DNA of 28,401 bases from Candidatus Wolframiiraptor sinensis (GCA_023261815.1 JALNKA010000015.1:1-28401), one strand, 5' to 3'; positions 215 through 12,475 are shown, counted from the first letter of the stretch. Made by a program: numbers and translations. Notes: generated from the sequence alone by a model not told the origin.

Positions 215-2077
215 ATGAGATTTAATCTGCAAGGAATGGGCTTGAAGAGGGGAAAGAAGGGCAAGGTCGAGGAGCTGCCGAATCCCTGGAAGGGCATAGA
301 GGTAAAGCCGATCCCGGAGAACTACGAGGTACTGGACCGCTACCCTATTAGGGAGGGGCTGGCGGAAGTCGTGATCGCGACGCCTCCCACCGAGACCCCC
401 GAGCCAACATACTTCGCCGTAGAGATCCAGCTCATGCCGCAGGAAGCTTTGGCCCTAGAAAAGCTAAAAGAAATTCTCTCTAAGGAGCTGGAGCCGCCGA
501 AGCCCGGCGAGGAGGAGGATGCCAGGAGAATTCTCCTGGAAACGGCTGATAAGTTGCTACGAAAATACGAGAGAGCGCTTGGAAGGTTCGACGAAGAGTC
601 CAAGCAGAAGCTGTTCTACTACTTGGAGAGGGATATGACGGGATTCGGCCCCCTCAATATAATAATGGAGGATTATAGGATCGAGGACGTCTCATGTGAT
701 GGCGTAAACATCCCGATATACGTCTGGCATAGAGATTACGAGAGCATTCCAACGAACATAATGTTCACGGACCGAGACGCCCTCGACGACTACATAATCC
801 AGCTAGCTCACAAGTCAGAGAAGCACATCTCATCGGCATTCCCGATACTGGATGCCATGATCTACGGCAAGCACAGGCTCGCCGCGACATTCAGGGAGGA
901 GATCTCGCCGCGCGGAAGCACATTCACGATAAGAAAATTCAGGGAGAAGCCATTCAGCGTAACAGAGCTGCTGCATTCGAGGCTTCTAAGCCCGGAGATG
1001 GCCGCATACTTCTGGCTGCTGATCGAGCATAAGGCGAACATACTCGTGGCGGGCGCGACGGGAAGCGGGAAAACAACAATCCTGAATGCGCTCATGTGCT
1101 TCGTCAAGCCCAGAATGAAGATCGTAACATGCGAGGAGACGGCCGAGCTGAATATACCGACCGAAAACTGGGTGAGATTCGTCACGCGAGAGAGCTATGG
1201 CCTCGGAGCGCAGAAAACCGGGGAGATAACGCTATATGATCTAGTCAAAACGAGCCTCAGATACAGGCCCGACTACCTCATAGTCGGAGAGGTAAGAGGA
1301 GAAGAAGCCTTCGTCCTCTTTCAAGCCATAGCTACCGGCCATGGAGGCTTATCCACAATTCACGCTGAGAGCATAGAGTCTGTTATGAAGAGGCTCGTGA
1401 GCCCGCCCATGAATATTCCGCCCAGCCATATTCCGCTGCTGGATGCCGTGGCGCTCGTCGAGAGAGTTCACCTTCCCAGATCGATTGACGGGAAGACTTA
1501 TGCTAGGAGGATGAGGTATGTATGGGAGGTCGTGGATTACGGGAAATATGTTACGATCGCGGAGTGGAATCCGGCGACGGATCAGTTCGTGACGGACTTC
1601 ACGAATAGCGTCGTCCTGGAGAGGATAGCAGCTAGAACCGCGAAGACTAAGGAAGAGATAATAGCTGAGATCGAGAGAAGGGCAGCGCTCCTCAAATCCC
1701 TCGTGGAGAAGGGTTTGATCGAGATAGGAGACATAGCCAGAGAGGTATATGCGTATTACTCGAACCCCGAGCAAGTCCTGAGAAAATATGGGATAGCCGT
1801 GGAAGCCATCCAAGTTCCCGCGGTGCCTTTTAGAGCCGGCGCTGAGAGCGCTGAGGTCAAGTCTCATGGGATCGCGAAAACATGGGCTGACGAGGAGAGC
1901 GAGTCATTGATCGCCGAGAAGGTGCTCAGCCTCCTGAGGCAACATGGAGGAGTATACCCGCTGTGGAGGATATTTGTTGAGACGCCGGCCTCGAAGATCA
2001 TGGTCTTCAGGGCCTTAAAGAGGCTGAGGGAGAGCGGGAAGATAGAGATGTCGAGATCAATGGTGATGCTGAGGTAG
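215..2077 (+). CDS. Type II/IV secretion system (VirB11/TadA/FlaI-like) pilus assembly ATPase with C-terminal winged-helix extension
   Basis: Walker A GATGSGKTT, Asp-box-like TCEETAEL, Walker B RYRPDYLIVGEVRGEEA, His-box TGHGGLSTIHA, and FTIRKF. The C-terminal ~55 aa are wHTH-like. Start could be ATG 236. Confidence 0.93.
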   Translation: MRFNLQGMGLKRGKKGKVEELPNPWKGIEVKPIPENYEVLDRYPIREGLAEVVIATPPTETPEPTYFAVEIQLMPQEALALEKLKEILSKELEPPKPGEEEDARRILLETADKLLRKYERALGRFDEESKQKLFYYLERDMTGFGPLNIIMEDYRIEDVSCDGVNIPIYVWHRDYESIPTNIMFTDRDALDDYIIQLAHKSEKHISSAFPILDAMIYGKHRLAATFREEISPRGSTFTIRKFREKPFSVTELLHSRLLSPEMAAYFWLLIEHKANILVAGATGSGKTTILNALMCFVKPRMKIVTCEETAELNIPTENWVRFVTRESYGLGAQKTGEITLYDLVKTSLRYRPDYLIVGEVRGEEAFVLFQAIATGHGGLSTIHAESIESVMKRLVSPPMNIPPSHIPLLDAVALVERVHLPRSIDGKTYARRMRYVWEVVDYGKYVTIAEWNPATDQFVTDFTNSVVLERIAARTAKTKEEIIAEIERRAALLKSLVEKGLIEIGDIAREVYAYYSNPEQVLRKYGIAVEAIQVPAVPFRAGAESAEVKSHGIAKTWADEESESLIAEKVLSLLRQHGGVYPLWRIFVETPASKIMVFRALKRLRESGKIEMSRSMVMLR

Positions 2078-2104
2078 GGCTGAAGCCCGGGGGCCAAGTC
2101 CACT

Positions 2105-2614
2105 CTAAAGTTTTATCATGCCCAGCAGGAATCTTAGAAGATTCATCGCGCTCTCCCTATCGAGGGCGACCGTCGGTATTACCGGGATCTCCGAGGGAGC
2201 CTTAAGGGCATGCCGCATCACTTTCTCAGGAATAATGTTTCCCCCATCAGCCTTATTCGCGGCGATCACGTGAGGCTTATCCGGGAAATTCCTCCTAAAA
2301 TAATCATATATGAATGCTGCATCCACGAGGCTTTTCGGGTCCTGGGAGTCGACCATGAGTATGTATCCATCCATCCCCTTGGCCAGGACCCGCCACATGA
2401 AGAAGAACCTCCGCTGGCCCGGAGTACCGAAGAGCCTGACGCGCTTATCATCAACCTCCAGGAGACCGAAGTCTAATGCGACCGTCGTCGTCTGCTTAAC
2501 AGTCTCGACCAGAAGCCTCCTATCTGACTCCAATATTTTTCCACATAAAGTTCTTATGAGCGTTGTCTTTCCCGCGTTAAACGGCCCCGTGACGACGATC
2601 TTATAGGTCCTCAT
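2105..2614 (-). CDS. MglA/CvnD-family small Ras-like GTPase (169 aa)
   Basis: G1 GPFNAGKTT, G2 TTTVALDFG, G3 LFGTPGQRRFFFMW, G4 NKAD, G5-like TVA. True start is ATG 2614, overlapping the upstream Roadblock stop (ATGA); the 45-aa extension in the ORF track lies inside the Roadblock gene. Confidence 0.92.
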   Translation of the reverse strand: MRTYKIVVTGPFNAGKTTLIRTLCGKILESDRRLLVETVKQTTTVALDFGLLEVDDKRVRLFGTPGQRRFFFMWRVLAKGMDGYILMVDSQDPKSLVDAAFIYDYFRRNFPDKPHVIAANKADGGNIIPEKVMRHALKAPSEIPVIPTVALDRESAMNLLRFLLGMIKL

Positions 2615-2976
2615 TTCGAGAGATAAGCCTCGAACACCAGATTTATGAATCCGAGATTTGGATTGGGCTTGGTGACTGCCACGACGTAATAGTCCCTGTA
2701 TCTTCTGATGAGGAAGTATCGCTTCTCCTTGAGTTTCACGTCCACGCAATCGAAGCCTTTGGAGTTTATCAGCTCTAAGACGGCGTCGGTTGCGCCGGCT
2801 ATGGATGATGTGGCCGCCGCGACGTAGTCAGGATCGAGGTCTATGTTAGCGCTGTACGCGATGGGCACACCATCCTGCGAGACTATGATTATCGCGTCCA
2901 CCCATCCCCTGCAGCTGATCATCATGTCCTCGATCAGCGATTTGAGCTCCGAGCGAACAGACTCCACATCCTTCAC
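2611..2976 (-). CDS. Roadblock/LC7 (MglB/CvnB-like) protein
   Basis: 121 aa; AIIIVSQDGVPIA...DPDYVAAATSSI...VAVTKPNPNLGFI is the Roadblock pattern. Four-base overlaps with both neighbours. Confidence 0.88.
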   Translation of the reverse strand: MKDVESVRSELKSLIEDMMISCRGWVDAIIIVSQDGVPIAYSANIDLDPDYVAAATSSIAGATDAVLELINSKGFDCVDVKLKEKRYFLIRRYRDYYVVAVTKPNPNLGFINLVFEAYLSK

Positions 2977-3515
2977 CTCCTACTAATCACACTCTCAACA
3001 TATCTCTGCAAGATTTCGCGGGCATACTCGGCATCCTCCGCCGTCGCGGAGCCTCCTATAATGAGGCAGTAGGGTGTCACATCGCCCACCTTCCTTAACT
3101 CAACTACAAGACTAGTGCCACTATTCTTGAATATAAGAATCTCGGCTGGAAACCCTAACCCCTTTAGCATATTTATGAGCTCCGCTAAGGAGGCAGCGGC
3201 CCTCGCGCCGTACTCCTTGGACATATTATAAGTCTCGATAATGAGCCCCTGATTATCAAAAAGCACTAAGATCTCGGCTCCGAGGATCACCGCCGCCTCG
3301 GCAAGTGAATTAACGCGCCTCATGGGTAATCTCCTTATCCCCAAAGATCTCTCAACAGCCTCTCCGTAAGCTCCCATAAGCGTCTTCACTACTCTTCCCT
3401 TAACCGTCCTTCTGAAGCTTTTAATAGCTAGTATAAGGGCGGCTGTAGCGAAGAGTAGCGAGGTAATGGCGAGGGCTACCGCAAACAGAAAATTAATCAC
3501 CCCCAAGGACAACAT
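2973..3515 (-). CDS. N-terminally membrane-anchored protein with a divergent Roadblock/LC7-like domain
   Basis: Hydrophobic residues ~5-31, then basic KSFRR; then ILVLFDNQGLIIE...ARAAASLAEL, matching the Roadblock strand-xxG-strand-helix pattern. Coupled to the Roadblock gene (GTGA). Confidence 0.68.
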   Translation of the reverse strand: MLSLGVINFLFAVALAITSLLFATAALILAIKSFRRTVKGRVVKTLMGAYGEAVERSLGIRRLPMRRVNSLAEAAVILGAEILVLFDNQGLIIETYNMSKEYGARAAASLAELINMLKGLGFPAEILIFKNSGTSLVVELRKVGDVTPYCLIIGGSATAEDAEYAREILQRYVESVISRR

Positions 3516-3556
3516 GGGTTATAACTAGATATACTTTCTTCTCAAGCGGGCTAAAA

Positions 3557-3570
3557 AGAAAATTTAATAG
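3557..3570 (+). promoter_or_regulatory. BRE/TATA promoter of the 3597 gene
   Basis: AGAAAA followed by TTTAATAG, ending 26 nt before ATG 3597. Confidence 0.55.
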
Positions 3571-3596
3571 CGATGAGTTTAATTTCCTAATTTGGA

Positions 3597-4370
3597 ATGC
3601 CTCATAGGATTCAGTTATTCATGACAGATGACGAGCTTTCGAGAAACATGCTTAGAATGGTGGATAAAATAACCCGGGTTCTTATGGAAAGATTTGGCCA
3701 GAGAATGAAGTCTTTCTCAAAGGATTATGTTGCCTATGTCCTCACGAGTAATACAGTTACGCTTAGCCCGAAGCAGGGGCCATCAGAAGTTGTTCAAATA
3801 GAGCTATTTTTTATTCTAAAGACGTATCGAGAGGAGCTTAAGACCAAGTTCGATCTCGTGGACTTTCCAACAGCTAAGTTCGACGGCAAGACTTATATCG
3901 GGCGGGATGCGCTCGAGATCGTATCCAGATTACATGATGCCCTAAGCAGAACTCCAAGCATAAGCGATGATGAGTTGCTGGCAGAGATTAAGAGCATCGC
4001 CAGTCAAGAGCATGTGCTGGAGAGCAGGGTAGCTGCCGAAAGGCTTTCAGTCCTATCGATCCTACAGAGGGGAGTAGAGCCGGCGATTAAGGCTGTTGGC
4101 AGAGTTTCATCGAGCTTGACGAGAATTGTTCAACTAACTCCACCTACCCCGTCCGAGGAGAAGAGCGTGGAGGTTGCCGCCAAAAAGCCGCAGCTTGAGG
4201 CGGAATATGCTTCTAGGAGCTTAATCGATAAAGTCGTTTTTGAGCGTAATGTGGTGAGGGCGGGAATTGCGGAGTGCTTGGCTAAGCTTGAGAAGCTGCG
4301 GGAAGAAGGCCGAATCGACGAAAATACGTACAAGAAAATGAAGGAGGTTTATAACGCGTTTTTGGGCTAG
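3597..4370 (+). CDS. Hypothetical protein: CxxC-less thioredoxin/glutaredoxin-like N-domain, linker, C-terminal SHOCT-like helical pair
   Basis: ELKTKFDLVDFPTAKFDGK resembles the cis-Pro region of the Trx fold; LAKLEKLREEGRIDENTYKKMK fits SHOCT. The N-domain is paralogous to 6391..6930. Confidence 0.6.
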   Translation: MPHRIQLFMTDDELSRNMLRMVDKITRVLMERFGQRMKSFSKDYVAYVLTSNTVTLSPKQGPSEVVQIELFFILKTYREELKTKFDLVDFPTAKFDGKTYIGRDALEIVSRLHDALSRTPSISDDELLAEIKSIASQEHVLESRVAAERLSVLSILQRGVEPAIKAVGRVSSSLTRIVQLTPPTPSEEKSVEVAAKKPQLEAEYASRSLIDKVVFERNVVRAGIAECLAKLEKLREEGRIDENTYKKMKEVYNAFLG

Positions 4371-4430
4371 TGGATGGGCTTCAGAAACGCATATATCCAG
4401 CTCATTAAACCTCCTCAATAGGTGGTTGAA

Positions 4431-4802
4431 ATGATGTCATCTAGATTTGAGGTGATGCGGGAAGTTTTAACGGCTCTCTCGCGTGGTAACCCCGATATTC
4501 TGGGATCAGCCATAGTGAGCGAGGAGGGTCTCGTTATAGCGAGCTTCCTTCCTGAAGGATATGATGATCAGAGAGTCTCGGCGGTTACCGCGGCCCTTCA
4601 CAGCATAGCTAATCGCGCGGCTCAGCAGATAGCGCTGGGCGAGGTTCAGCGAATGATGTTATTTGCCGAGAAGGGTGGAGCCGTCCTGTGCTCCGGGAAG
4701 AGGGCCTCACTTGTGGTCTTGACCAGGCCTAACGCCAAGATCGGTCTCGTGCTGATGGATATCATGGACGCTGTTGAAAAGCTCAAAGATGTGCTGGGTT
4801 AA
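4431..4802 (+). CDS. Roadblock/LC7 (MglB-like) protein
   Basis: NPDILGSAIVSEEGLVIAS...DQRVSAVTAAL...LVVLTRPNAKIGLV. AGGTG lies 6 nt before ATG 4431 (ORF track uses GTG 4422). Confidence 0.92.
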   Translation: MMSSRFEVMREVLTALSRGNPDILGSAIVSEEGLVIASFLPEGYDDQRVSAVTAALHSIANRAAQQIALGEVQRMMLFAEKGGAVLCSGKRASLVVLTRPNAKIGLVLMDIMDAVEKLKDVLG

Positions 4803-6244
4803 TGAGTTTTCACCATAGCTTCAGCCCCACCTTTCATAATGATACTCCCCCTCAGGCACCCGGGATCCGCTGCTAAGTAATCTCCGAAATATGCGTAGGC
4901 CCTCGCCCTACATCCGCCGCAAACATACCTATACTCACAGCTTCCGCATGGCCCCTTGAGCAGATCCTTGTTCTTCAGGTCATTTATCGTCTTGCTATTC
5001 TCCCATATATCCTGGAGCCTATCCCTTCTCAGGTTTCCGACGGGGATTGGCATGAAGACGCATGGCGTGACCGTTCCATCCGGCTGTATCGCCATATATA
5101 TTCTCCCGGCCCCGCATCCCCCTATGAATTCGGCGACCGCCCTCAGGGTTGAGCTGTTGGGAATCGTGAAGTGCGTTGGGAGAACATCCTCGCCGCGGCT
5201 CATCTGCCAGGAGACCCGTGCCAGCTGCGGAGCCGTGGAAACCACTTGAATGCTGGATCTAGCTGATTCGCGGTAAATTCTCCTCAGCACGTCCTCCCTC
5301 TCCTCCGGGGATAAGTCGAGCTCCACGGCCTCCTTCCCCCTGCCCGTGGGAATGAAGTTGAAGAACACGACCCTATTTACTCCCAGCTCCTCGCCCAGCC
5401 TCACCATATCCTCGATCCTATCCTTATTGAGCTTGGTGACCGTGGCGGCTATCCCGATGGAGACCCTGCCTTCACCGTATTTGACGATGTTCCTTATGCC
5501 CTTCACCGCCAGCTCCCAGGCGCCCCTAACCCCCCTGAAGCCATCATGCTCCCCAGGTTCTGTGGAGTCGAGGCTAACCTCCACGTATCTCAACCCCGCC
5601 TCGATCGCGCGCCTAGCGAACTCATCATCCGCGAACCTTATCCCATTAGTCGCGACCGCCATGTAAATTCCCCTCCTCGCGCCCTCCTCAACCACTCGAA
5701 GGAAATCGGGGTGTATTGTCGGCTCCCCGCCGCTCAAGGCCACGACAGGTATCCCCATCTCATCTATCTGCCTAATCACCTCGACTCTCTCCTCAGAAGT
5801 AAGCTCATCAGGCCCGGGAGTTGGCCCCGCGCTCTGATAACAGTGAACGCACTTGAGGTTACAGGCATTAGTGAAATTCCAGACTATGAGGAATGGGGCC
5901 GCCAGCTTCTGGGGCACGGTCACGCCGTATCTCAGCAGGCTCCTCAGGACCAGCTCAAGCCCCCTCCTGATCGCGGGGTCCCTTATCCCTAGCTCAAACT
6001 CCTCCTGCCTTATGTGCATGAACTTCATCGCCGCCCCAAAAAGCAGCTTGCAGAAATAGTAGTCTAGCACGCAGCTGAAGCTCACACTGCTCTTTTCCTT
6101 ATACGCGAGCATTCTTAGAACGTGCTCAAGCCTAGTTCTCGCGCCAGCGGGATCGGGCTCCAGAAATCTCCTGAGGAAGGCTCTCGAGATCCGGCCTCCG
6201 AAAATCCTTCTAGCAATCTTGAGGCTGTCGGCCTCGAGCGACAG
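4799..6244 (-). CDS. Radical SAM/SPASM enzyme, candidate GMGT synthase (Gms)-like; probable CTG start
   Basis: CNLKCVHC, SGGEP, and SPASM cysteines (GCGAGR, PCVF, CGSCEYRYVCGGCRARA, DPGC). The frame stays open upstream of ATG 6112 to a TGA at 6253-6251, and GGTGA-N6-CTG lies at 6244. The Gms call is from recalled similarity and is tentative. Confidence 0.85.
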   Translation of the reverse strand: MSLEADSLKIARRIFGGRISRAFLRRFLEPDPAGARTRLEHVLRMLAYKEKSSVSFSCVLDYYFCKLLFGAAMKFMHIRQEEFELGIRDPAIRRGLELVLRSLLRYGVTVPQKLAAPFLIVWNFTNACNLKCVHCYQSAGPTPGPDELTSEERVEVIRQIDEMGIPVVALSGGEPTIHPDFLRVVEEGARRGIYMAVATNGIRFADDEFARRAIEAGLRYVEVSLDSTEPGEHDGFRGVRGAWELAVKGIRNIVKYGEGRVSIGIAATVTKLNKDRIEDMVRLGEELGVNRVVFFNFIPTGRGKEAVELDLSPEEREDVLRRIYRESARSSIQVVSTAPQLARVSWQMSRGEDVLPTHFTIPNSSTLRAVAEFIGGCGAGRIYMAIQPDGTVTPCVFMPIPVGNLRRDRLQDIWENSKTINDLKNKDLLKGPCGSCEYRYVCGGCRARAYAYFGDYLAADPGCLRGSIIMKGGAEAMVKTH

Positions 6245-6354
6245 GGCTGTTCACCGGAAGCCGGATGCTCAGCGCCCAAGAATAAATTTTCGCCCACCTT
6301 CCCAAGGATAGGTCTTAAGAAGGGTGGGCCTAAGCGGTTAAATGCCGCTACGGG

Positions 6355-6368
6355 GAAAAGTTATAAGA
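6355..6368 (+). promoter_or_regulatory. BRE/TATA promoter of the 6391 operon
   Basis: GAAAAG-TTATAAGA; the TATA starts 30 nt before ATG 6391, canonical leaderless spacing. Confidence 0.65.
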
Positions 6369-6390
6369 CATATCGCTAAGAATTGTTAGC

Positions 6391-6930
6391 ATGCCTCAGA
6401 TGATATTCTTCTTTATAGCGGAGGATGAGCTTTCAAATAAGGTATCTGCGATCCTAAACAATCTCGTAGGCAAGATTAAGGGCTCCGCGAAGATAAGGTA
6501 CTCGGAGAGCGTCGACGTATCCATGACAAATGTTAGAATCGGGCTGAAATCGGCTCTCGGAAAAGAGGATGCCCTGGAGCTCAGAATACACGCGATGCCA
6601 GAAGCCTATGCAGAATCGCTCAAGATCAGGTATGGGTTGCCGGGGATTCCTGCGGTGAAGCTGGGCGAAGCTGTTCGCTGGGGCGAGGACGCTGTCTCAG
6701 CTGCTTCAATACTTCACTCCCTGCTCGTGGAAGGCGGCACCCTAACGGCTGAGCAAGTATTCTACGAGATCGCGAACTACATACAGGGCTCCGCCGGGGC
6801 AGTGAGCATGCCGGAGAAAGAAGTCCCGATGGTCGGCGCAACAGCATCCAGAGATAAGATTCAAGGCATCGTGGATTTCCTCTTGAAGGACAACCCGGAT
6901 ATAATGGGGTGCGCTATCTTAAATGATTAA
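6391..6930 (+). CDS. 5' part of a frameshifted Trx-like domain-Roadblock fusion gene
   Basis: N-domain aligns with the 3597 protein (FIAEDELS vs FMTDDELS; YAESLKIRYGLPGIPAVKLG vs YREELKTKFDLVDFPTAKFD). It ends in the first Roadblock strand, NPDIMGCAILND*. Confidence 0.75.
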   Translation: MPQMIFFFIAEDELSNKVSAILNNLVGKIKGSAKIRYSESVDVSMTNVRIGLKSALGKEDALELRIHAMPEAYAESLKIRYGLPGIPAVKLGEAVRWGEDAVSAASILHSLLVEGGTLTAEQVFYEIANYIQGSAGAVSMPEKEVPMVGATASRDKIQGIVDFLLKDNPDIMGCAILND

Positions 6931-7216
6931 GGGGATGATAATGGCGTGCAGCATGCCGTCTGAAATAGGTGAGGAGAGGATCTCCGCAGTCTTCACCGCC
7001 CTTCAAGACATAATCGAGAATGGAGTCCAGCAGATGGCGCTCGAGAGGATAAACCAGCTAATGATCTTCGCGGAGAAGGGAGGCGCCCTACTCCACAGGC
7101 ATAACAACCTCTTCCTGCTGGTACTCATAAAACCAGAAGCAAAGCTCGGAGCGATACTCATGGACTTGAAGAATGCCATTGACGAGCTTGATCAGATCAC
7201 CGCTACAAAGCCCTAA
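6923..7216 (+). CDS. 3' part (rest of the Roadblock/LC7 domain) of the frameshifted fusion gene
   Basis: KGMIMACSMP...ERISAVFTAL...MIFAEKGGALL...KPEAKLGAILMD aligns with the 4431 Roadblock from its EGLVIAS onward, in the +1 frame. Confidence 0.78.
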   Translation: MIKGMIMACSMPSEIGEERISAVFTALQDIIENGVQQMALERINQLMIFAEKGGALLHRHNNLFLLVLIKPEAKLGAILMDLKNAIDELDQITATKP

Positions 7217-8238
7217 TGTCGAGATCCATGAAGAGGGCAGCGCTTTACGGGAAATCCGGCGAAGACGTCACATGCCTCGTATGCGAGAGAGCTTGTAGAA
7301 TAAAGCCCGGAGCCCATGGAATATGTGGAAATTATCGAAACATCGATGGAGAGCTCATTCACGTGGGATACGGGGTTCTAAGCGCGATCGAGAGCAGGCC
7401 CATTGAGATTAAGCCTCTCTTCCACTACTGGCCAAATAGCACGGCTCTGACATTCTCAGGCTATGGGTGCAATTTCTACTGCCCATGGTGTCAGAACAGC
7501 CACCTGAGCTTCTCAAGGCCTCCGCCTGGAGCCGAGCCAACCCCTCCCGAAAAGCTGGTGGAAATGGCCATTAGAAACCGAGATGAAGGCCTCTGCACGA
7601 GCTTCAATGAACCCGCAACGTTATTCGACTACCTCCTAGATCTATTCGAGCTCGGATCTAGGAAGGGGTTATACGGCACGGTCGTGACGAACGGCTACTT
7701 CACCGAGCGAGCGATGAAGATGCTTATCGAGGCGGGCGCAGACGGCTTCAGCATAAACATCAAGGGATGCCCACTCGCCAAACAAGCATTAACAACAATA
7801 GACCACCTAAAGGTCTTCAGAAACGCCCGGAAAATCTTAGACCTAGGAGGCCACGTGGAGATGGTATACCTCGTCGTAACGGGATTCAACGACTCAGAGG
7901 AATGCGCAGAGTGGATATTCGAAAAACACCTAGAATATCTCGGAGAATCCACTCCAATACACATTAACAGATATTATCCCGCAAACTTCTGGAAAAATCC
8001 CCCAACACCACTGAGCAAGCTCCTAAAATTTAGGGAAATGGCGGCGAAAGAGGGCATAGAATACGTCTACGTGGGAAATGTCGGGATACCGGATCTTGAG
8101 ACAACAAAATGTCCGAAATGTGGAAAGAAGTTGATTATAAGAAATCTCCACCGCGTAGTATACTATAAACTTGATGGAGATAGGTGCCCTAACTGTGGAT
8201 GCAAAATAACGCTAAGGGGGAAATATATCCGAAAATAA
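7216..8238 (+). CDS. amrS: AmmeMemoRadiSam system radical SAM enzyme (PFL-activating-enzyme-like)
   Basis: N-terminal CLVCERAC...GICG, PIEIKPLFHYWP, GCNFYCPWCQN, FNEP, YVYVGNV, C-terminal CPKCG/CPNCG. TAATG overlap with the upstream gene. Confidence 0.85.
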   Translation: MSRSMKRAALYGKSGEDVTCLVCERACRIKPGAHGICGNYRNIDGELIHVGYGVLSAIESRPIEIKPLFHYWPNSTALTFSGYGCNFYCPWCQNSHLSFSRPPPGAEPTPPEKLVEMAIRNRDEGLCTSFNEPATLFDYLLDLFELGSRKGLYGTVVTNGYFTERAMKMLIEAGADGFSINIKGCPLAKQALTTIDHLKVFRNARKILDLGGHVEMVYLVVTGFNDSEECAEWIFEKHLEYLGESTPIHINRYYPANFWKNPPTPLSKLLKFREMAAKEGIEYVYVGNVGIPDLETTKCPKCGKKLIIRNLHRVVYYKLDGDRCPNCGCKITLRGKYIRK

Positions 8239-8319
8239 GCTATGTGATAGGGCACCATAAGAATCTCCATTTTAAGATAACACGGCGGAAAGGCAACCTA
8301 CAGCGCTCTCTAGACTTAA

Positions 8320-9231
8320 TTATGCAGGCTTACATATGAGAGCATAGTTTGTGGCGTTCAATCTGCATACAAAGATGTATCTTTGAATTTCAGCGAAATC
8401 CATATCAGAGCTACTATACTTTTTCTGAGTAAATTCTCCTATAGCCTCTACTATTCTAATCCTATACCCTATGAGGCCACCGAATCTCTTAGAATCATCT
8501 GACGTATCATCTGTTACTCTTATCGTAAAGCCGCTAAAATAGGACTCTCCAGGGGTCAACCTGCTAACGATATTTACAGATGTTGACACATCACAGCCAC
8601 TGAGCCCAGAGCATGCTAGAATACTTATTTCTATCCTTATGTTTCGCAATGGCTCTGAGTTATTCCCAAGAGAGATCATGTATGGTATGTATATGCTCCC
8701 ACTCTGCTGCTGAAGCACCACAGTAGTGCTATCTGATAGTGCTGAATCTATTCTGAGGGGGGCTTTTGCCGGCAGAGATGGTTCAGGCAATGTTATTCTC
8801 AAGACTGTATCCTGAAATACCTCAACCTCTTGTGATGGTATGCCTGAGGGAGCATTATCCTTGAAAAGTTCAATTCTATATTTCCCTGGCGCAACCATGA
8901 AAACGGCCACTCTAGATTCCCCTGGAGTAAGGGTTGTTAAGTTGTATCTAGCAATGTCACCGCAGGGATTATTACTAGCTACTCCTGCTAATACACATCC
9001 ATATTCTGTCCCCGATCTACTCACTACGATGGTATAAATAGTTCCTGAGATCATGTTTTCTAGGGAAACTAATAGTAGATAGGGTAATTTCCTAGGCCCT
9101 ATACTTTCAGAAGTAAAGCCGTTCCCCCTTAATGTGACCACTTTCGCCCTAATCACCTCATCATCACTCCTGAAATACTGCCCGGTACCTCTCTCGAACA
9201 ATTCACCTGGCGCGAAAAAAGGACTTCCCAA
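8320..9231 (-). CDS. 3' part of a frameshifted large pilin-like protein (end of pilin head plus beta-rich Ig-like domains)
   Basis: No signal peptide; opens with APGE...KVVTLRGNGF, typical of archaeal pilin-head C-terminal strands. LTPGES occurs twice, with paired cysteines. Confidence 0.65.
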   Translation of the reverse strand: MGSPFFAPGELFERGTGQYFRSDDEVIRAKVVTLRGNGFTSESIGPRKLPYLLLVSLENMISGTIYTIVVSRSGTEYGCVLAGVASNNPCGDIARYNLTTLTPGESRVAVFMVAPGKYRIELFKDNAPSGIPSQEVEVFQDTVLRITLPEPSLPAKAPLRIDSALSDSTTVVLQQQSGSIYIPYMISLGNNSEPLRNIRIEISILACSGLSGCDVSTSVNIVSRLTPGESYFSGFTIRVTDDTSDDSKRFGGLIGYRIRIVEAIGEFTQKKYSSSDMDFAEIQRYIFVCRLNATNYALICKPA

Positions 9232-9559
9232 GCACCTCCTCCGAGGAAAAGGTCATTAATCCGCGCCCCGTGCTTTCGAGATAAACCGTTGGCACGTTGA
9301 CGCTTAGCGTTCCAGTATTCTCTATTATCAAGAATATTACGTAGCCTTCTCCAGGGCGTAGGGCCAGCGATAGGCGCACATTCAGCTTCTCATGTATTCT
9401 CTCGAGCTCATATTGCAGTCTCCTAGAAACCTCTTGCATGAATAATGATTGGAGGCTCTGTATGTAGAGAAGCGCGGGGATTATCACCGTGAAGAATATC
9501 GCTAATGCTATTGCGGTGCCCAGTACCGCCGACACTGCTTTACGAGAGCCTCTCCACAT
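9203..9559 (-). CDS. Archaeal type IV pilin-like protein, 5' part
   Basis: Class III signal peptide MWRGSRKA|VSAVLGTAIALAIFF and IENTG motif. Start reassigned to ATG 9559, overlapping the end of the upstream pilin. Confidence 0.8.
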   Translation of the reverse strand: MWRGSRKAVSAVLGTAIALAIFFTVIIPALLYIQSLQSLFMQEVSRRLQYELERIHEKLNVRLSLALRPGEGYVIFLIIENTGTLSVNVPTVYLESTGRGLMTFSSEEVLGKSFFRAR

Positions 9560-10682
9560 ACACCTCAATCCTCCAAACATCAAACATGCTGGGATAGGGA
9601 TATACACGAATCATATAATCCTCATAGCTACCGGAGGAAACACCATTTCTCACTAACTCTCCCAGGGAGATGACGGCTCCATTACAGTCTTTTAACACGG
9701 CCTTAACTTTGTAATTACCCGAATATCCGTGATATACGGTCACGTAAACGCTATAAACTCTATAGTTAAAGGTGTTCCAGAATAACTTGATGAGCTCTAC
9801 AGATGAATAGGTGCTGGATGGTGTTGATAATCTGTGGAAATACCATTCTCTTTGAGGTATCTCCCAATTTTGTGTTGAACTTATGATTTGTATCGTCTGA
9901 GGATAATACTTTCCAGAGGTATCCGCTTTAACCATTTGATGACTTTCACCCGCGGATGTAACTATATTTTCTCTAAGATTGGTTACTCCTACCTTTATCT
10001 TTATGTTTTCTATTGCTGAGGCTTTGGGGAGCCTAATTCTGATATTCTCGGACAATCTACCGCTGGAGATTGATGACTCTTCAGGATCAACATAATCTAC
10101 CCAAGTCCAGTTCTTTCCTTGGAAGTATAAATAACATTGTGGTGAGGAACCGCCGCCCAAATATCCCCAGCGAGCCTCCTCAGATTTAAATGATTTAACT
10201 TGGAAAAGCACAGTCTCCGGGTTTACCTTAATGATATCTTCCTCTGAAAGCAGTTTTACGGGTACATAATACACGCTGAGCGTCACATACTTATTGGGGT
10301 TACATGATGGGCAAACAAATCTATATAGTCCCACTTCGGTGGGTCTTAGCACGTATTCTCCAGCTTTGTCCTCTCGACGTATGGGGCCTAGTTTGGAGCT
10401 CCACCCGAGACGCCCCTCGCTGTCATAAACCACGAGTCTTACTATTACTACATCTTCGGTGCCGATATTTCTGATCCAAGCTAATCCCTCAGGCCATAAG
10501 ACATAGTCTGCAGATATCATGCTCCTCATTATAATCGAGTTTTCATTTAGCTTCCTATGGCTTTCGAGGCGCGATATCGCGATGTATCCTGACAAGAAGC
10601 TCCATGCGAATATCCCCGCGGATAAAATGAAAGCCGCCAGAATCACGGTTGAGACGATTTCGCTTAATCCCCTTTTATCCAA
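9540..10682 (-). CDS. Archaeal type IV pilin-like protein with C-terminal beta-rich domain (minor pilin/adhesin)
   Basis: MDKRG|LSEIVSTVILAAFILSAG class III signal; IRNIG; CPSC; paralogous to 10675..11868. Confidence 0.85.
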   Translation of the reverse strand: MDKRGLSEIVSTVILAAFILSAGIFAWSFLSGYIAISRLESHRKLNENSIIMRSMISADYVLWPEGLAWIRNIGTEDVVIVRLVVYDSEGRLGWSSKLGPIRREDKAGEYVLRPTEVGLYRFVCPSCNPNKYVTLSVYYVPVKLLSEEDIIKVNPETVLFQVKSFKSEEARWGYLGGGSSPQCYLYFQGKNWTWVDYVDPEESSISSGRLSENIRIRLPKASAIENIKIKVGVTNLRENIVTSAGESHQMVKADTSGKYYPQTIQIISSTQNWEIPQREWYFHRLSTPSSTYSSVELIKLFWNTFNYRVYSVYVTVYHGYSGNYKVKAVLKDCNGAVISLGELVRNGVSSGSYEDYMIRVYPYPSMFDVWRIEVYVERLS

Positions 10683-11868
10683 TCTTGGTCACCTCGCTCT
10701 CCACATAATAAATCTGATCTAATCTAACTGGATTACTTAACGTGATAAAGGCAGTAGCCTTAGCGCTCGAGGAACCGTCCAGATTTATATTCATAGAAAT
10801 GCTTCCGGTGGCAATAACTTTTCCATTACAGTCCTTTATGGTTATAGAGATGCGATATGTTCCAGAGCGACCAAATCCCAGCTCAGCGAGCACGGCATCT
10901 ACGAGCTTATCATCTGTTCTCCATGAAAGGATTAGGCCACTGATGTGCGCGACATTTGGTTGCCCCCCGAAAATCCACTCTCCTGGAATCATCTGCATAT
11001 TTGGCGAACTTAAAGTGACTTTGAATGGGACGCATATTCGGCTTATAGACCCGGATAAGGAGATACTGTACTGCTGGGACTCTCTTGGAACATTTATCGA
11101 GGCCGAGCCGGATGCGGAGGCCGTTCCACCTATTTTTCTCACAGCAACATTAACCGTAATTACGTCCACTCCAGATGCGAGTGGAGCTTCTATCCAAACT
11201 CTTCCATAACCGCTGTAAGAATAAAGACACCCAGAAGAGACTACAGTCACGGGGTCTACCAAATCCATTAGGGTCCAGCCATTCTCTGGTAGAGGACACT
11301 CTAACTTAATGCTAGGATTCGTGATCACGGAGTCCCCAGTCGGTATCTCTGTTGTTGAGAGGCGAAGCCCTCTCTCATATATGCTTAATGGTATATAATA
11401 AGCTCTATACGCTATCCCACCGCTTGAGCGACACTCTTCACGTAGCTCCGGCCGATCTAAGCCCTCGCAGGTTGGTAAATCCTTTATTACAATACTTTCT
11501 CCACGTTTTAATACATATTCTTCATCACTTGAGAAATATTTAGTATAGAAAACCTTAAACGTTTCGAGTGATCTCAACTCAACCCTGGATATAACTACGG
11601 CAATTTCCTCGTCTGAAACGTTTCTCAAAACTAAGCTTATATCACCATCTTCATCAAATGACATGGATTCTATCACGACCAATGACCTCACTACTTCTAT
11701 GTTTCCCTGGGTTTCCCTCGTGGCTGTTAGGAGAGAATTATGGGTCCATCCATTCACAATTAATAATAGTAGAAGGCCAAGAGCCACGGTTACGGCGGAG
11801 AGAATGCAAGCTTCTACAATAGTTATGGCTCTTTTAGAGCCCCATCGAAGGCAAAGCCTCAACTCCAA
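10675..11868 (-). CDS. Archaeal type IV pilin-like protein with C-terminal beta-rich domain
   Basis: SKRA|ITIVEACILSAVTVALGLLLL signal with Glu at +5; LRNVS; shares WT..D.VDP and KDCNG.VI..G motifs with the neighbour. Confidence 0.8.
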   Translation of the reverse strand: MELRLCLRWGSKRAITIVEACILSAVTVALGLLLLLIVNGWTHNSLLTATRETQGNIEVVRSLVVIESMSFDEDGDISLVLRNVSDEEIAVVISRVELRSLETFKVFYTKYFSSDEEYVLKRGESIVIKDLPTCEGLDRPELREECRSSGGIAYRAYYIPLSIYERGLRLSTTEIPTGDSVITNPSIKLECPLPENGWTLMDLVDPVTVVSSGCLYSYSGYGRVWIEAPLASGVDVITVNVAVRKIGGTASASGSASINVPRESQQYSISLSGSISRICVPFKVTLSSPNMQMIPGEWIFGGQPNVAHISGLILSWRTDDKLVDAVLAELGFGRSGTYRISITIKDCNGKVIATGSISMNINLDGSSSAKATAFITLSNPVRLDQIYYVESEVTKIG

Positions 11869-11890
11869 ATCATTTAAAAAACTCGAGGTT

Positions 11891-11904
11891 ATATATAAGT
11901 CTTT
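11891..11904 (-). promoter_or_regulatory. BRE/TATA promoter of the large-pilin operon
   Basis: Minus strand AAAGAC-TTATATAT; the TATA starts 30 nt before TTG 11868. Confidence 0.6.
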
Positions 11905-11950
11905 AAAATCATACGCAACGCCATTTTCGCCAGTAATTATCCAGTAATTA

Positions 11951-12475
11951 TCATGTAGTGAATCCTTTCTTCGTAAATGCCATTTCCAGGATCCTAATCA
12001 CCGAAGACGCCTCACCGGGATTCATTTTCTCTAGGATTTCGGAGGGTGCGTACCAAATCCTGTAAACGAGTTCCTCGCCTGGCTCGCAATAAGTGCATGT
12101 TGGGGCATCTATGCCTGCGGAGTCGCCTATTCTACTCAGTTTCGCCAATTCTCCGATTCCATTCGGCGGGGTGGCATTTACGATGAGGGACCTTCGTGAT
12201 GAATATAGCTCAATTCTGCAAATAGTAATCGATATATTGTATTTTGACACGTTTCTTGCGTAAATCGTAGATTTTTCATCTGAATAGTTCATGGCTTCAA
12301 TCACTAGGATCGCCCGCATGAGTTGCGTGTACTTATCGAATTCTCCGGTGATGTTGACACCATATGTCTGAACCCAGGACGCGGCTAGGTACATTATGAA
12401 GAGGCCGAGTGTAAGCGTTATTGCGGCAATGATTATTACTCCGATAGTCGCCATGCCCAGCTTCAATCCGCACAT
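11951..12475 (-). CDS. Small archaeal type IV pilin-like protein (174 aa)
   Basis: LKLG|MATIGVIIIAAITLTLG signal; head domain (LVIE..., ARNVS, PTCTYC, YRIWYAP) is homologous to the N-domain of the 397-aa pilin. Confidence 0.75.
   Translation of the reverse strand: MCGLKLGMATIGVIIIAAITLTLGLFIMYLAASWVQTYGVNITGEFDKYTQLMRAILVIEAMNYSDEKSTIYARNVSKYNISITICRIELYSSRRSLIVNATPPNGIGELAKLSRIGDSAGIDAPTCTYCEPGEELVYRIWYAPSEILEKMNPGEASSVIRILEMAFTKKGFTT

Follow-up and report, generated by a model that had tools for sequence, protein, structure and literature searches.

Positions 215-12475 of a 28,401-base stretch of DNA from Candidatus Wolframiiraptor sinensis (GCA_023261815.1, JALNKA010000015.1; the whole stretch is called the window below) make up the greater part of a locus for a type IV pilus, and not for an archaellum, in a hot-spring archaeon of the Caldarchaeales. 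The locus includes genes for a small GTPase of the MglA family, for four Roadblock proteins and for two members of a lineage-specific protein family, and the best explanation of these sequences is a small-GTPase switch of the MglA/MglB kind that is built into the pilus locus. Such a switch, tethered to the membrane through Roadblock proteins, probably regulates this pilus machine. The arrangement of GTPase and Roadblock genes in an archaeal pilus locus is conserved in the family to which the organism belongs, and its function as a switch is a candidate one. The observation of gene content is real and lies well above chance, and its interpretation is plausible and partly supported.

The window is one entire contig (C20) of a genome assembly of 1.18 Mb that is 92% complete, and the map of the locus was built from a listing of open reading frames (ORFs) and from Pfam and NCBIfam scans. 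The original prediction, which had been made from the sequence alone, named a pilus-type ATPase, an MglA-type GTPase, four Roadblock genes (one membrane-anchored and one fused), two paralogous thioredoxin (Trx)-like domains and four pilins. Every one of these gene classes is found where it had been placed, on the evidence of the ORF listing, family scans and fold models. The paralogy of the Trx-like domains holds up and their likeness to thioredoxin is weakly supported; among the four pilin-like genes, one exceeds a family cut-off, one is weakly UpsA-like and two are recognized by reading only. Absent from that list were two radical SAM genes, an ORF for the C-terminal part of a pilin (8320-9231), the status of the window as a whole contig and the lack of a platform gene.

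The GTPase and Roadblock genes

There is a single GTPase of this family in the genome and its gene is located in this locus (2105-2614, minus strand). The predicted product of 169 amino acids is matched by small-GTPase families of both Pfam and NCBIfam and is of the GTPGQ type. Its P-loop (GPFNAGKTT), switch I (TTV) and G4 motif (NKxD) are invariant among 11 homologs; within the G3 motif FGTPGQ the residues G63, P65, G66 and Q67 are also invariant and T64 is at least 90% conserved. When solved structures are searched by profile with the GTPase, the GTP-binding protein 8oun scores 62 bits and Thermus MglA (3t12) scores 60 bits over the full length, and Arf and Sar proteins fall below Thermus MglA at about 47-52 bits. 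The closest named records, with up to 86% identity, are from Candidatus Wolframiiraptor and allied Caldarchaeales genera.

As set out in parts of Wuichet and Sogaard-Andersen 2014 (PMC4316618), the MglA proteins of Groups 2-5 have GTPGQ in G3 and a Thr that replaces the Arg finger of Group 1, and the MglB proteins coupled to these groups have a common Asp-Gly pair. The GTPase of the locus has the G1, G2 and G4 motifs, the GTPGQ sequence, the Thr for Arg and the coupled Roadblock gene that characterize Groups 2-5. In a HMMER alignment, the Arg finger of Thermus MglA 3t12 (...DERTLFFDF) is aligned with the invariant Thr43 of the GTPase. Thus, the GTPase is placed with Groups 2-5 and not with Group 1, because it carries GTPGQ instead of TVPGQ and a Thr in place of the Arg finger. 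The adjoining Roadblock protein Robl1 has an Asp35-Gly36 pair that is invariant among 18 homologs and is putatively the pair described for the coupled MglB proteins.

A second, longer frame of 403-419 amino acids, with a GTPase domain that is 37% identical to that of the window, is present in four genomes of genera g4 and g2 from the organism's family (L031-L034; G020:C11, G024:C19, G016:C19 and G022:C6).

Three genes of the minus strand, which encode the GTPase, Robl1 (2611-2976) and the membrane-tethered protein TM_Robl (2973-3515), are joined by overlaps of start and stop codons. The start codon of Robl1 overlaps the TM_Robl stop codon as GTGA and is located behind an AGGAGG sequence, and the GTPase start, an ATG at 2614, overlaps the Robl1 stop codon as ATGA. 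Robl1 is a soluble, MglB-like Roadblock/LC7 protein (Pfam Robl_LC7, 5.6e-8), and its best profile match in the PDB is the Roadblock protein 9jue (8.5e-5).

The AlphaFold2 (AF2) model of TM_Robl consists of a transmembrane (TM) helix, a disordered, variable linker (residues 41-61), and a C-terminal domain of alpha-beta-beta-alpha-beta-beta-beta-alpha topology. The mean pLDDT is 84 and exceeds 90 in the domain, wherein residues 71-179 adopt a Roadblock fold. A Foldseek search with this model retrieves MglB, Rag C-domain, LAMTOR and Asgard Roadblock structures at a probability of 1.00, with E values from 4.7e-5, and 43 matches have an E value of 0.001 or lower. There is no match of TM_Robl to Pfam PF03259 (Robl_LC7) at E <= 0.01; a paralog in locus L035 reaches 0.028, which is below the cut-off, and a comparison of TM_Robl with the Robl1 profile by hhalign (probability 6%, E 0.006) is too weak for use. 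The membership of TM_Robl among the Roadblock proteins rests on the predicted fold, because sequence matches are absent or weak. A cluster of Lys and Arg residues after the TM helix suggests that the Roadblock domain faces the cytoplasm.

The other two Roadblock domains are encoded on the plus strand. Robl2 (4422-4802) is a soluble Roadblock/LC7 protein (Pfam Robl_LC7, 1.1e-11), and the fourth Roadblock domain (6923-7216), which is part of a fusion gene described below, is 39% identical to Robl2 (E 4e-24). Both of the Roadblock genes in this genome that are detectable with Pfam are in this locus. A further Roadblock homolog is found at C4:11768-12298 of the same genome (E 6.6e-23 to Robl1); its neighbours match no query from the pilus locus and it was set aside.

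The pilus machine and the TrxL proteins

A secretion ATPase of the FlaI/PilB type, as expected of an archaeal type IV pilus (T4P), is encoded at 215-2077 on the plus strand (620 amino acids; Pfam T2SSE, 1.9e-34). The best NCBIfam model is FlaI at 353 bits, under its cut-off of 550; BasE scores 231 bits and there is a weak Pfam match to PilB3_C. The protein ends in a C-terminal extension of about 90 amino acids that matches no family. Orthologs of this ATPase with 55-78% identity occupy the pilus loci of relatives. In several of these the frame is longer, at 1085-1127 amino acids (L035:3990-7361 and, by frame length, L058, L059, L060, L070 and L072). The L035 protein has a Pfam Intein_splicing match (1.2e-14) after the Walker region, and the copy in the window is without an intein.

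Five ORFs are found on the minus strand between 8320 and 12475, and four of them open with a short charged leader followed by a hydrophobic helix. The gene at 9540-10682 encodes a large pilin-like protein of 380 amino acids with a class III signal peptide, which passes the model for the archaellin/type IV pilin N-terminal domain (TIGR02537, 22.2 bits with a cut-off of 20) and has orthologs in pilus loci of its own and the sister family. Another large pilin-like protein (10675-11868, 397 amino acids) is recognized by reading from its charged leader and hydrophobic helix. It has no family match in Pfam or NCBIfam, and its orthologs co-occur with other pilins in relatives. The small pilin-like protein (11951-12475, 174 amino acids) is also recognized by reading, from an N-terminal hydrophobic helix; it has one weak match, to DUF7548, at 0.0028 and below the cut-off, and weak homologs in pilus loci of the sister family. 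A prepilin peptidase is encoded elsewhere in the genome (Peptidase_A24 at C12:32065-32388, 29.6 bits with a cut-off of 26.5). Pilins with class III signal peptides, two of the four pilin-like genes being recognized by reading only, and a genomic prepilin peptidase are thus found, as is characteristic of T4P systems.

The remaining pilin-like gene (8320-9607) is split in the window into a part that encodes the signal peptide and N-terminal portion (9203-9607), with a weak likeness to UpsA (1.2e-5), and a part that encodes the C-terminal portion (8320-9231). In tblastn searches, relatives of 425 and 444 amino acids match the window in two frames, and the protein is about 430 amino acids long in relatives. 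The split is due to one base at 9215, inside a run of six A residues (9215-9220), which is absent in runs X2 and X5, so that the gene is continuous there. A homopolymer of this kind could vary by slippage.

In near relatives, the region just upstream of the orthologous ATPase gene contains a second TM_Robl/Robl1 pair (TM_Robl' and Robl1'), a platform protein of 592 amino acids and a small pilin. The platform gene (T2SSF, PF00482, 1.1e-23) stands beside the orthologous genes. Neither the platform, the small pilin nor the second Roadblock pair is found in the assembly of C. W. sinensis by tblastn, which returns Roadblock paralogs only, and the sole T2SSF gene of this genome adjoins another ATPase on contig C9. 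The window begins 214 bases before the ATPase gene. The simplest explanation for the absence of the platform gene is that the contig ends there, in a genome that is incomplete.

The machine resembles the archaellum motor in that FlaI is the best model for the ATPase and in that a FlaI/FlaJ-type machine is accompanied by cytoplasmic accessory proteins. Identification as an archaellum was considered and rejected, both because the FlaI score falls short of the cut-off and because the archaellin genes of relatives are located elsewhere. No archaellin (Arch_flagellin) genes were found in genomes G000 or G007, and in relatives they are on other contigs or far from the locus, which indicates that the locus is a pilus locus and not an archaellum locus. 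The small pilin has no match to Arch_flagellin (PF01917), and no KaiC-like FlaH is among the ORFs covered by the general family scans of the locus.

Two plus-strand genes encode paralogs that we call TrxL_A (3597-4370) and TrxL_B (6391-6930), which are 24% identical over 136 amino acids (E 7e-11). In TrxL_A, an N-terminal alpha/beta domain (residues 1-136; AF2 pLDDT > 90) is joined by a disordered stretch to a helical hairpin at the C-terminus, and the protein matches nothing in Pfam or NCBIfam. The best Foldseek E value for its N-terminal domain is 0.01, with Trx, SasA-N and KaiB at probabilities of 0.85-0.95 and TM scores of about 0.5 on the target. Similarly, residues 1-136 give VIA Z scores of 5.5-6.6 (GST-N, Trx, SasA-N and KaiB), under the guide value of 8. 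There is no Cys in the invariant or near-invariant columns of a 15-sequence alignment, and hence no conserved CxxC motif, so the proteins would be a non-redox form if the fold is thioredoxin-like. The family is small, with 37 relatives among 1.84 billion cluster representatives, and a search of the ESM Atlas with the N-terminal domain gave no usable match. A prediction of a complex between the ATPase and TrxL_A, which gave scores of 0.00 and 0.20 (mark 0.32) and in which the controls were not folded, is uninformative.

TrxL_B is fused to the fourth Roadblock domain. The TrxL_B-Roadblock gene (6391-7216) is one frame of 287 amino acids in a near relative, and is interrupted here by a one-base shift into 6391-6930 and 6923-7216. 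A DNA alignment locates an extra base and a TAA stop codon in the window (ATG at 6923, TAA at 6928-6930; site 6920-6932). The base at 6927 is absent in the contigs of runs X2, X5 and X19, which restores the fusion, and run X3 is the same as the window at this site and at the pilin site.

Gene linkage and competing explanations

The class to which the organism belongs was surveyed in 76 genomes of four families: its own (f1; Wolframiiraptor and kin), the sister family f2, and families f3 and f4. There are GTPase genes in 23 of the 34 f1 genomes and in all 19 f2 genomes. In 18 of the 23 GTPase-bearing f1 genomes, the gene is at most 5 kb from a platform match on the same contig, and in the remaining five either no platform is found or each of the two is on a short contig of its own. 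All 20 f1-like loci (L058-L077) have an ATPase, platform or pilin match in the flanks of the GTPase gene, and this match is to an ATPase or platform in 19 of the 20.

This linkage survives rearrangement over four f1 genera. The order in the Wolframiiraptor-like genus g1 is pilin, platform, Robl1' and TM_Robl', then the ATPase, then GTPase, Robl1 and TM_Robl, followed by TrxL_A with Robl2 and by TrxL_B with its Roadblock domain. Genera g2, g4 and g5 have Robl2, TrxL and ATPase consecutively on one strand, and TM_Robl, Robl1, GTPase, platform and pilin on the other. The latter series, all on one strand, is also found in one Wolframiiraptor-like genome (L044/L077). Moreover, the genes for TopoVIB and ArgG that form the outer flanks in g1 are not seen in g5 loci. 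Because gene orders and flanks differ among the genera, the cluster has remained together as its surroundings changed.

Linkage is also found beyond the class. Of 401 sampled genomes from the phylum, 63 have a GTPase match at E <= 1e-20, 32 of these are outside the class, and 12 of the 32 were examined; two of the 12 have linkage to pilus genes. The genome from family f38 (G227) has TM_Robl, Robl1, GTPase, pilin-like genes and a T2SSF platform of 612 amino acids on one strand, next to a T2SSE ATPase, and the genome from family f48 (G406) has a fragment of a T2SSE ATPase 1.8 kb from the GTPase gene at the end of a contig. Of 41 GTPase loci from outside Caldarchaeales (39 of them bacterial by title), a T2SSE-like ATPase is found in the flanks of 12, and all 11 of these ATPase ORFs that were scanned match Pfam T2SSE. 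The order in one actinomycetotal locus (L095) is a PilB-type ATPase, a Roadblock protein (293 amino acids), DUF4388, the GTPase and a second PilB-type ATPase. Judged by gene neighbourhood in f38, f48 and the 12 outside loci, GTPases of this family are repeatedly associated with type IV pilus motors, and this in both domains. The GTPases of several loci from Actinomycetota and Coriobacteriia (L095, L096, L099, L108, L109, L110 and L114) are 40-43% identical to that of the window.

A number of observations weigh against a regulatory tie between the GTPase and the pilus. The f1 genomes are kin, and counts within this family are not independent events. Even here, genus g3 has the GTPase in none of seven genomes and keeps the platform in three of them. 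In f2, none of the 16 genomes with both systems has the GTPase near the pilus locus; the two are 620 kb apart on one contig in G025 and on separate contigs in the other 15. The f2 pilus locus is orthologous (ATPase 55-57% and platform about 61% identical, with a small pilin and three large pilins), and there is no Roadblock or TrxL match in it. The TM_Robl'-Robl1-GTPase operon of f2 is instead adjoined by genes for a proteasome, a dehydrogenase, a tRNA endonuclease and PhoU. None of the 19 Caldarchaeales-like loci from outside the organism's own family (L078-L094, L097 and L098) has a pilus gene in its flanks.

Families f3 and f4 retain the platform ortholog, which is found in all four families and in 55 of the 76 genomes, and lack the GTPase (0 of 4 and 0 of 18 genomes, respectively). 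Therefore, the pilus works without the GTPase in these families. Ten of the 12 other Thermoproteota genomes that were examined are likewise unlinked. Finally, the system may be impaired in this strain, because two genes of the locus carry frame disruptions.

Given the unlinked genes of f2 and the pilus without a GTPase in f3 and f4, the GTPase/Roadblock module is an accessory, and its recruitment to the pilus locus took place in one family. The original prediction had named unlinked genes in related genomes, together with a lack of any predicted or measured interaction, as the outcome that would count against it, and this outcome is seen in part: the genes are unlinked in f2, the GTPase is lacking in f3 and f4, and the linkage is present in f1. 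The proposal of an MglA/MglB-like module that is tied to T4P is supported by the motifs, the operon overlaps, the f1 linkage and its recurrence elsewhere; the role that it proposed, in pilus positioning or motility, is a candidate one. Families f2, f3 and f4 and genus g3 speak against a universal tie.

In f2, a frame for 129 amino acids with a B-box zinc finger match (5.7e-5) precedes one of the TM_Robl'-Robl1-GTPase operons (L081:8516-8902). The g3 platform was considered as a pseudogene and this was rejected, given that one TAA in two matches lies past the end of an open frame of 595 amino acids (L153).

The components suggest how a switch in the f1 locus might operate. TM_Robl, with its Roadblock domain in the cytoplasm, and Robl1 would together make up a Roadblock dimer that is held in the membrane at the pilus platform. 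This dimer would bind the GTPase and control which nucleotide it carries, in the manner of MglB with MglA. In its GTP-bound form, the GTPase could then act on the platform or the ATPase motor to influence when or where pili assemble. Perhaps the signal reaches the motor via the TrxL, Robl2 and TrxL-Roadblock proteins that are encoded with the ATPase. Genus g3, after loss of the GTPase, retains a TM_Robl'-Robl1'-platform-pilin group together with the ATPase. Because the Roadblock pair stays with the platform there, contact with the machine is probably made by the Roadblock dimer, with the GTPase as its modulator. A more specific version is possible, if doubtful: the Roadblock heterodimer and the MglA-type GTPase could form a Ragulator-like platform on the T4P motor that switches the single ATPase between assembly and disassembly, or between active and idle states at a chosen site, wherein the TrxL-Roadblock protein would serve as an adaptor on the ATPase side.

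Other explanations of the same genes must be weighed against regulation of the pilus. The TM_Robl-Robl1-GTPase trio could be a general membrane switch with another target, such as the envelope, division, transport or signalling, and its position in the pilus locus an inherited accident of gene order. The separation of the trio from pilus genes throughout f2, its housekeeping neighbours there, the predominance of unlinked genomes among the other Thermoproteota and the pilus without GTPase in f3 and f4 are all as expected for a general switch, and related bacterial GTPases, those of the conservons, have non-pilus outputs according to published abstracts. An accident of gene order would not readily account for a linkage that outlasts rearrangement in four genera despite changed outer flanks, or for the three genera in which the GTPase gene is immediately flanked by Robl1 and the platform gene, all on one strand. 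The linkage also arises again in f38 and f48 with a different order, T2SSE ATPases are found near GTPase homologs outside the order, and the Roadblock pair stays by the platform where the GTPase has been lost. Thus, we regard a general switch as rather unlikely.

The Roadblock and TrxL proteins might also be structural or assembly accessories, forming a cytoplasmic scaffold like the accessories of the archaellum motor, with a dispensable GTPase and no on/off or polarity switching. The g3 loci that are without a GTPase fit this idea, as do the two TM_Robl/Robl1 pairs of Wolframiiraptor genomes, one of which is with the platform and has no GTPase gene beside it, and the location of TrxL and Robl2 directly after the ATPase gene. 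Roadblock genes are noted in various archaeal T4P loci in a passage of Makarova et al. 2016 (PMC4858521) that names no GTPase. The orthologous f2 pilus locus argues otherwise, because it is without any Roadblock or TrxL gene, which indicates that these are not core parts. In addition, the nucleotide-binding motifs of the GTPase are all invariant, the gene occurs in 23 of the 34 f1 genomes, a frequency that points to selection for an active GTPase, and the solved Roadblock structures with partners that match the TM_Robl model are all from GTPase platforms or dynein light chains. A purely structural role is on these grounds quite unlikely.

Least probable of all, and in our judgement very improbable, is that the locus is decaying in this strain and that a regulated pilus is no longer made. 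Two one-base frame disruptions, in the TrxL_B-Roadblock and pilin genes that are intact in near strains, would be consistent with decay, as would the lack of any match in the assembly to the platform, to the small pilin and to the second pair of Roadblock proteins. An assembly gap is the simplest account of the missing genes, given a contig that starts so close to the ATPase gene and an incomplete genome. Furthermore, the remaining genes in the locus, including the paralogs TrxL_A and Robl2, are undamaged, and one of the two disruptions is in the A6 run that could vary. Regulation of the pilus by the GTPase and Roadblock proteins therefore remains our preferred reading.

Neighbouring genes and related systems

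Two radical SAM genes are interspersed with the genes described above. One encodes a radical SAM/SPASM enzyme (4799-6112, minus strand; Pfam Radical_SAM 1.9e-26, SPASM 2e-12) that is AhbD/NirJ-like, with an NCBIfam AhbD score of 263 bits (cut-off 500). The other (7216-8238, plus strand; Pfam Radical_SAM 8e-16) is AmmeMemoRadiSam-like, with a score of 183 bits for TIGR04337 (cut-off 220), and its start overlaps the stop codon of the TrxL_B-Roadblock gene. This pair adjoins the locus in genera g1, g2 and g4 and is not found in g5 loci, and its membership in the pilus system is uncertain. In two genera, a gene for about 240 amino acids with weak winged-helix matches and a hydrophobic C-terminus is located between Robl2 and the radical SAM/SPASM gene (L040:11781-12494 and L043:2833-3552).

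Contigs from an RNA-library run (X19) are 95-99% alike to the window at 1909-2910, 3627-5941 and 6410-7581. They cover the ATPase, GTPase, Robl1, TrxL_A, Robl2, TrxL_B-Roadblock and both radical SAM genes. Because libraries of this kind may contain DNA, the cover is only a hint of expression and was not counted as such.

MglA and MglB are tied to type IV pili in bacteria, as described in parts of PMC9481161 and PMC2910265. As in Myxococcus xanthus and Thermus thermophilus, the gene for a single-domain, Ras-like GTPase stands beside a Roadblock/LC7 gene, Thermus MglA is a top solved match of the GTPase, and the best structural matches of TM_Robl include MglB. The GTPase differs from Group 1 MglA in its GTPGQ motif and in the loss of the intrinsic Arg finger. 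Also unlike in the bacterial systems, a TM helix anchors one of the Roadblock proteins, the locus has four Roadblock genes and a lineage-specific TrxL family, and the genes are inside the pilus locus of an archaeal FlaI/FlaJ-type machine.

The conservons (CvnA-D, MglA Group 2) likewise combine in one operon a GTPGQ GTPase, an MglB-type Roadblock protein and a membrane-anchored partner, according to parts of PMC4316618 and PMC13343842, and the Pfam ATP_bind_1 match of the locus GTPase is shared with them in kind. A conservon was nevertheless rejected as an identification, given that none of the 15 ORFs scanned between 215 and 12475 matches a histidine kinase or CvnC (DUF742) at E <= 0.01. Here the membrane component is a Roadblock protein and not a kinase, and the neighbours are pilus genes.

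The resemblance to Rag/Ragulator, by analogy, is that a membrane-held platform of Roadblock fold would receive a small GTPase, and the structures matched by TM_Robl include Rag C-domains and LAMTOR chains. Unlike Rag proteins, the GTPase is a single domain with no fused Roadblock domain, and the tether is a TM helix instead of a lipidated subunit as in Ragulator. The likeness is therefore one of fold and logic only.

With its ATPase, class III signal-peptide pilins and, in relatives, FlaJ/TadC-like platform, the locus is similar to the archaeal T4P loci in the catalogue of Makarova, Koonin and Albers 2016 (PMC4858521), in which Roadblock genes are often present. The main text of that paper does not describe a TM-tethered Roadblock protein, the TrxL family or an operon with the platform gene. 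The sole GTPase that it names with T4P loci is of the FtsZ family, and Supplementary Table S4 may list others. By word count, Wuichet and Sogaard-Andersen 2014 (PMC4316618) mention type IV pili in the introduction only. The main texts of two papers on this lineage, PMC9246946 and PMC12979851, contain none of the terms pili, pilus, pilin, motility, archaell- or GTPase. According to the abstract of PMC9246946, enrichment cultures have been obtained for named relatives of the lineage, which makes experiments conceivable. The original prediction knew of no characterization of such a system, and our literature search, which did not cover supplements, agrees in finding no study that links an archaeal pilus to a small GTPase, with the addition that Roadblock genes in T4P loci had already been noted in 2016.

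A switch in an archaeal pilus operon is a concrete candidate regulator, membrane-tethered by a Roadblock protein and provided with a putative family-specific adaptor. To our knowledge, the switching, placement and retraction of archaeal type IV pili are poorly understood. The archaeal machines have a single ATPase, and in bacteria the MglA/MglB switch sets where pili work. In eukaryotes, Rag/Ragulator is a GTPase on a membrane-anchored Roadblock platform, and the candidate described here bears on the deep history of such GTPase-Roadblock platforms. If a Ragulator-like platform does act on the pilus motor, this would be the first GTPase-controlled archaeal surface filament, and a prokaryotic instance of a GTPase on a membrane-anchored Roadblock platform as in Rag/Ragulator.

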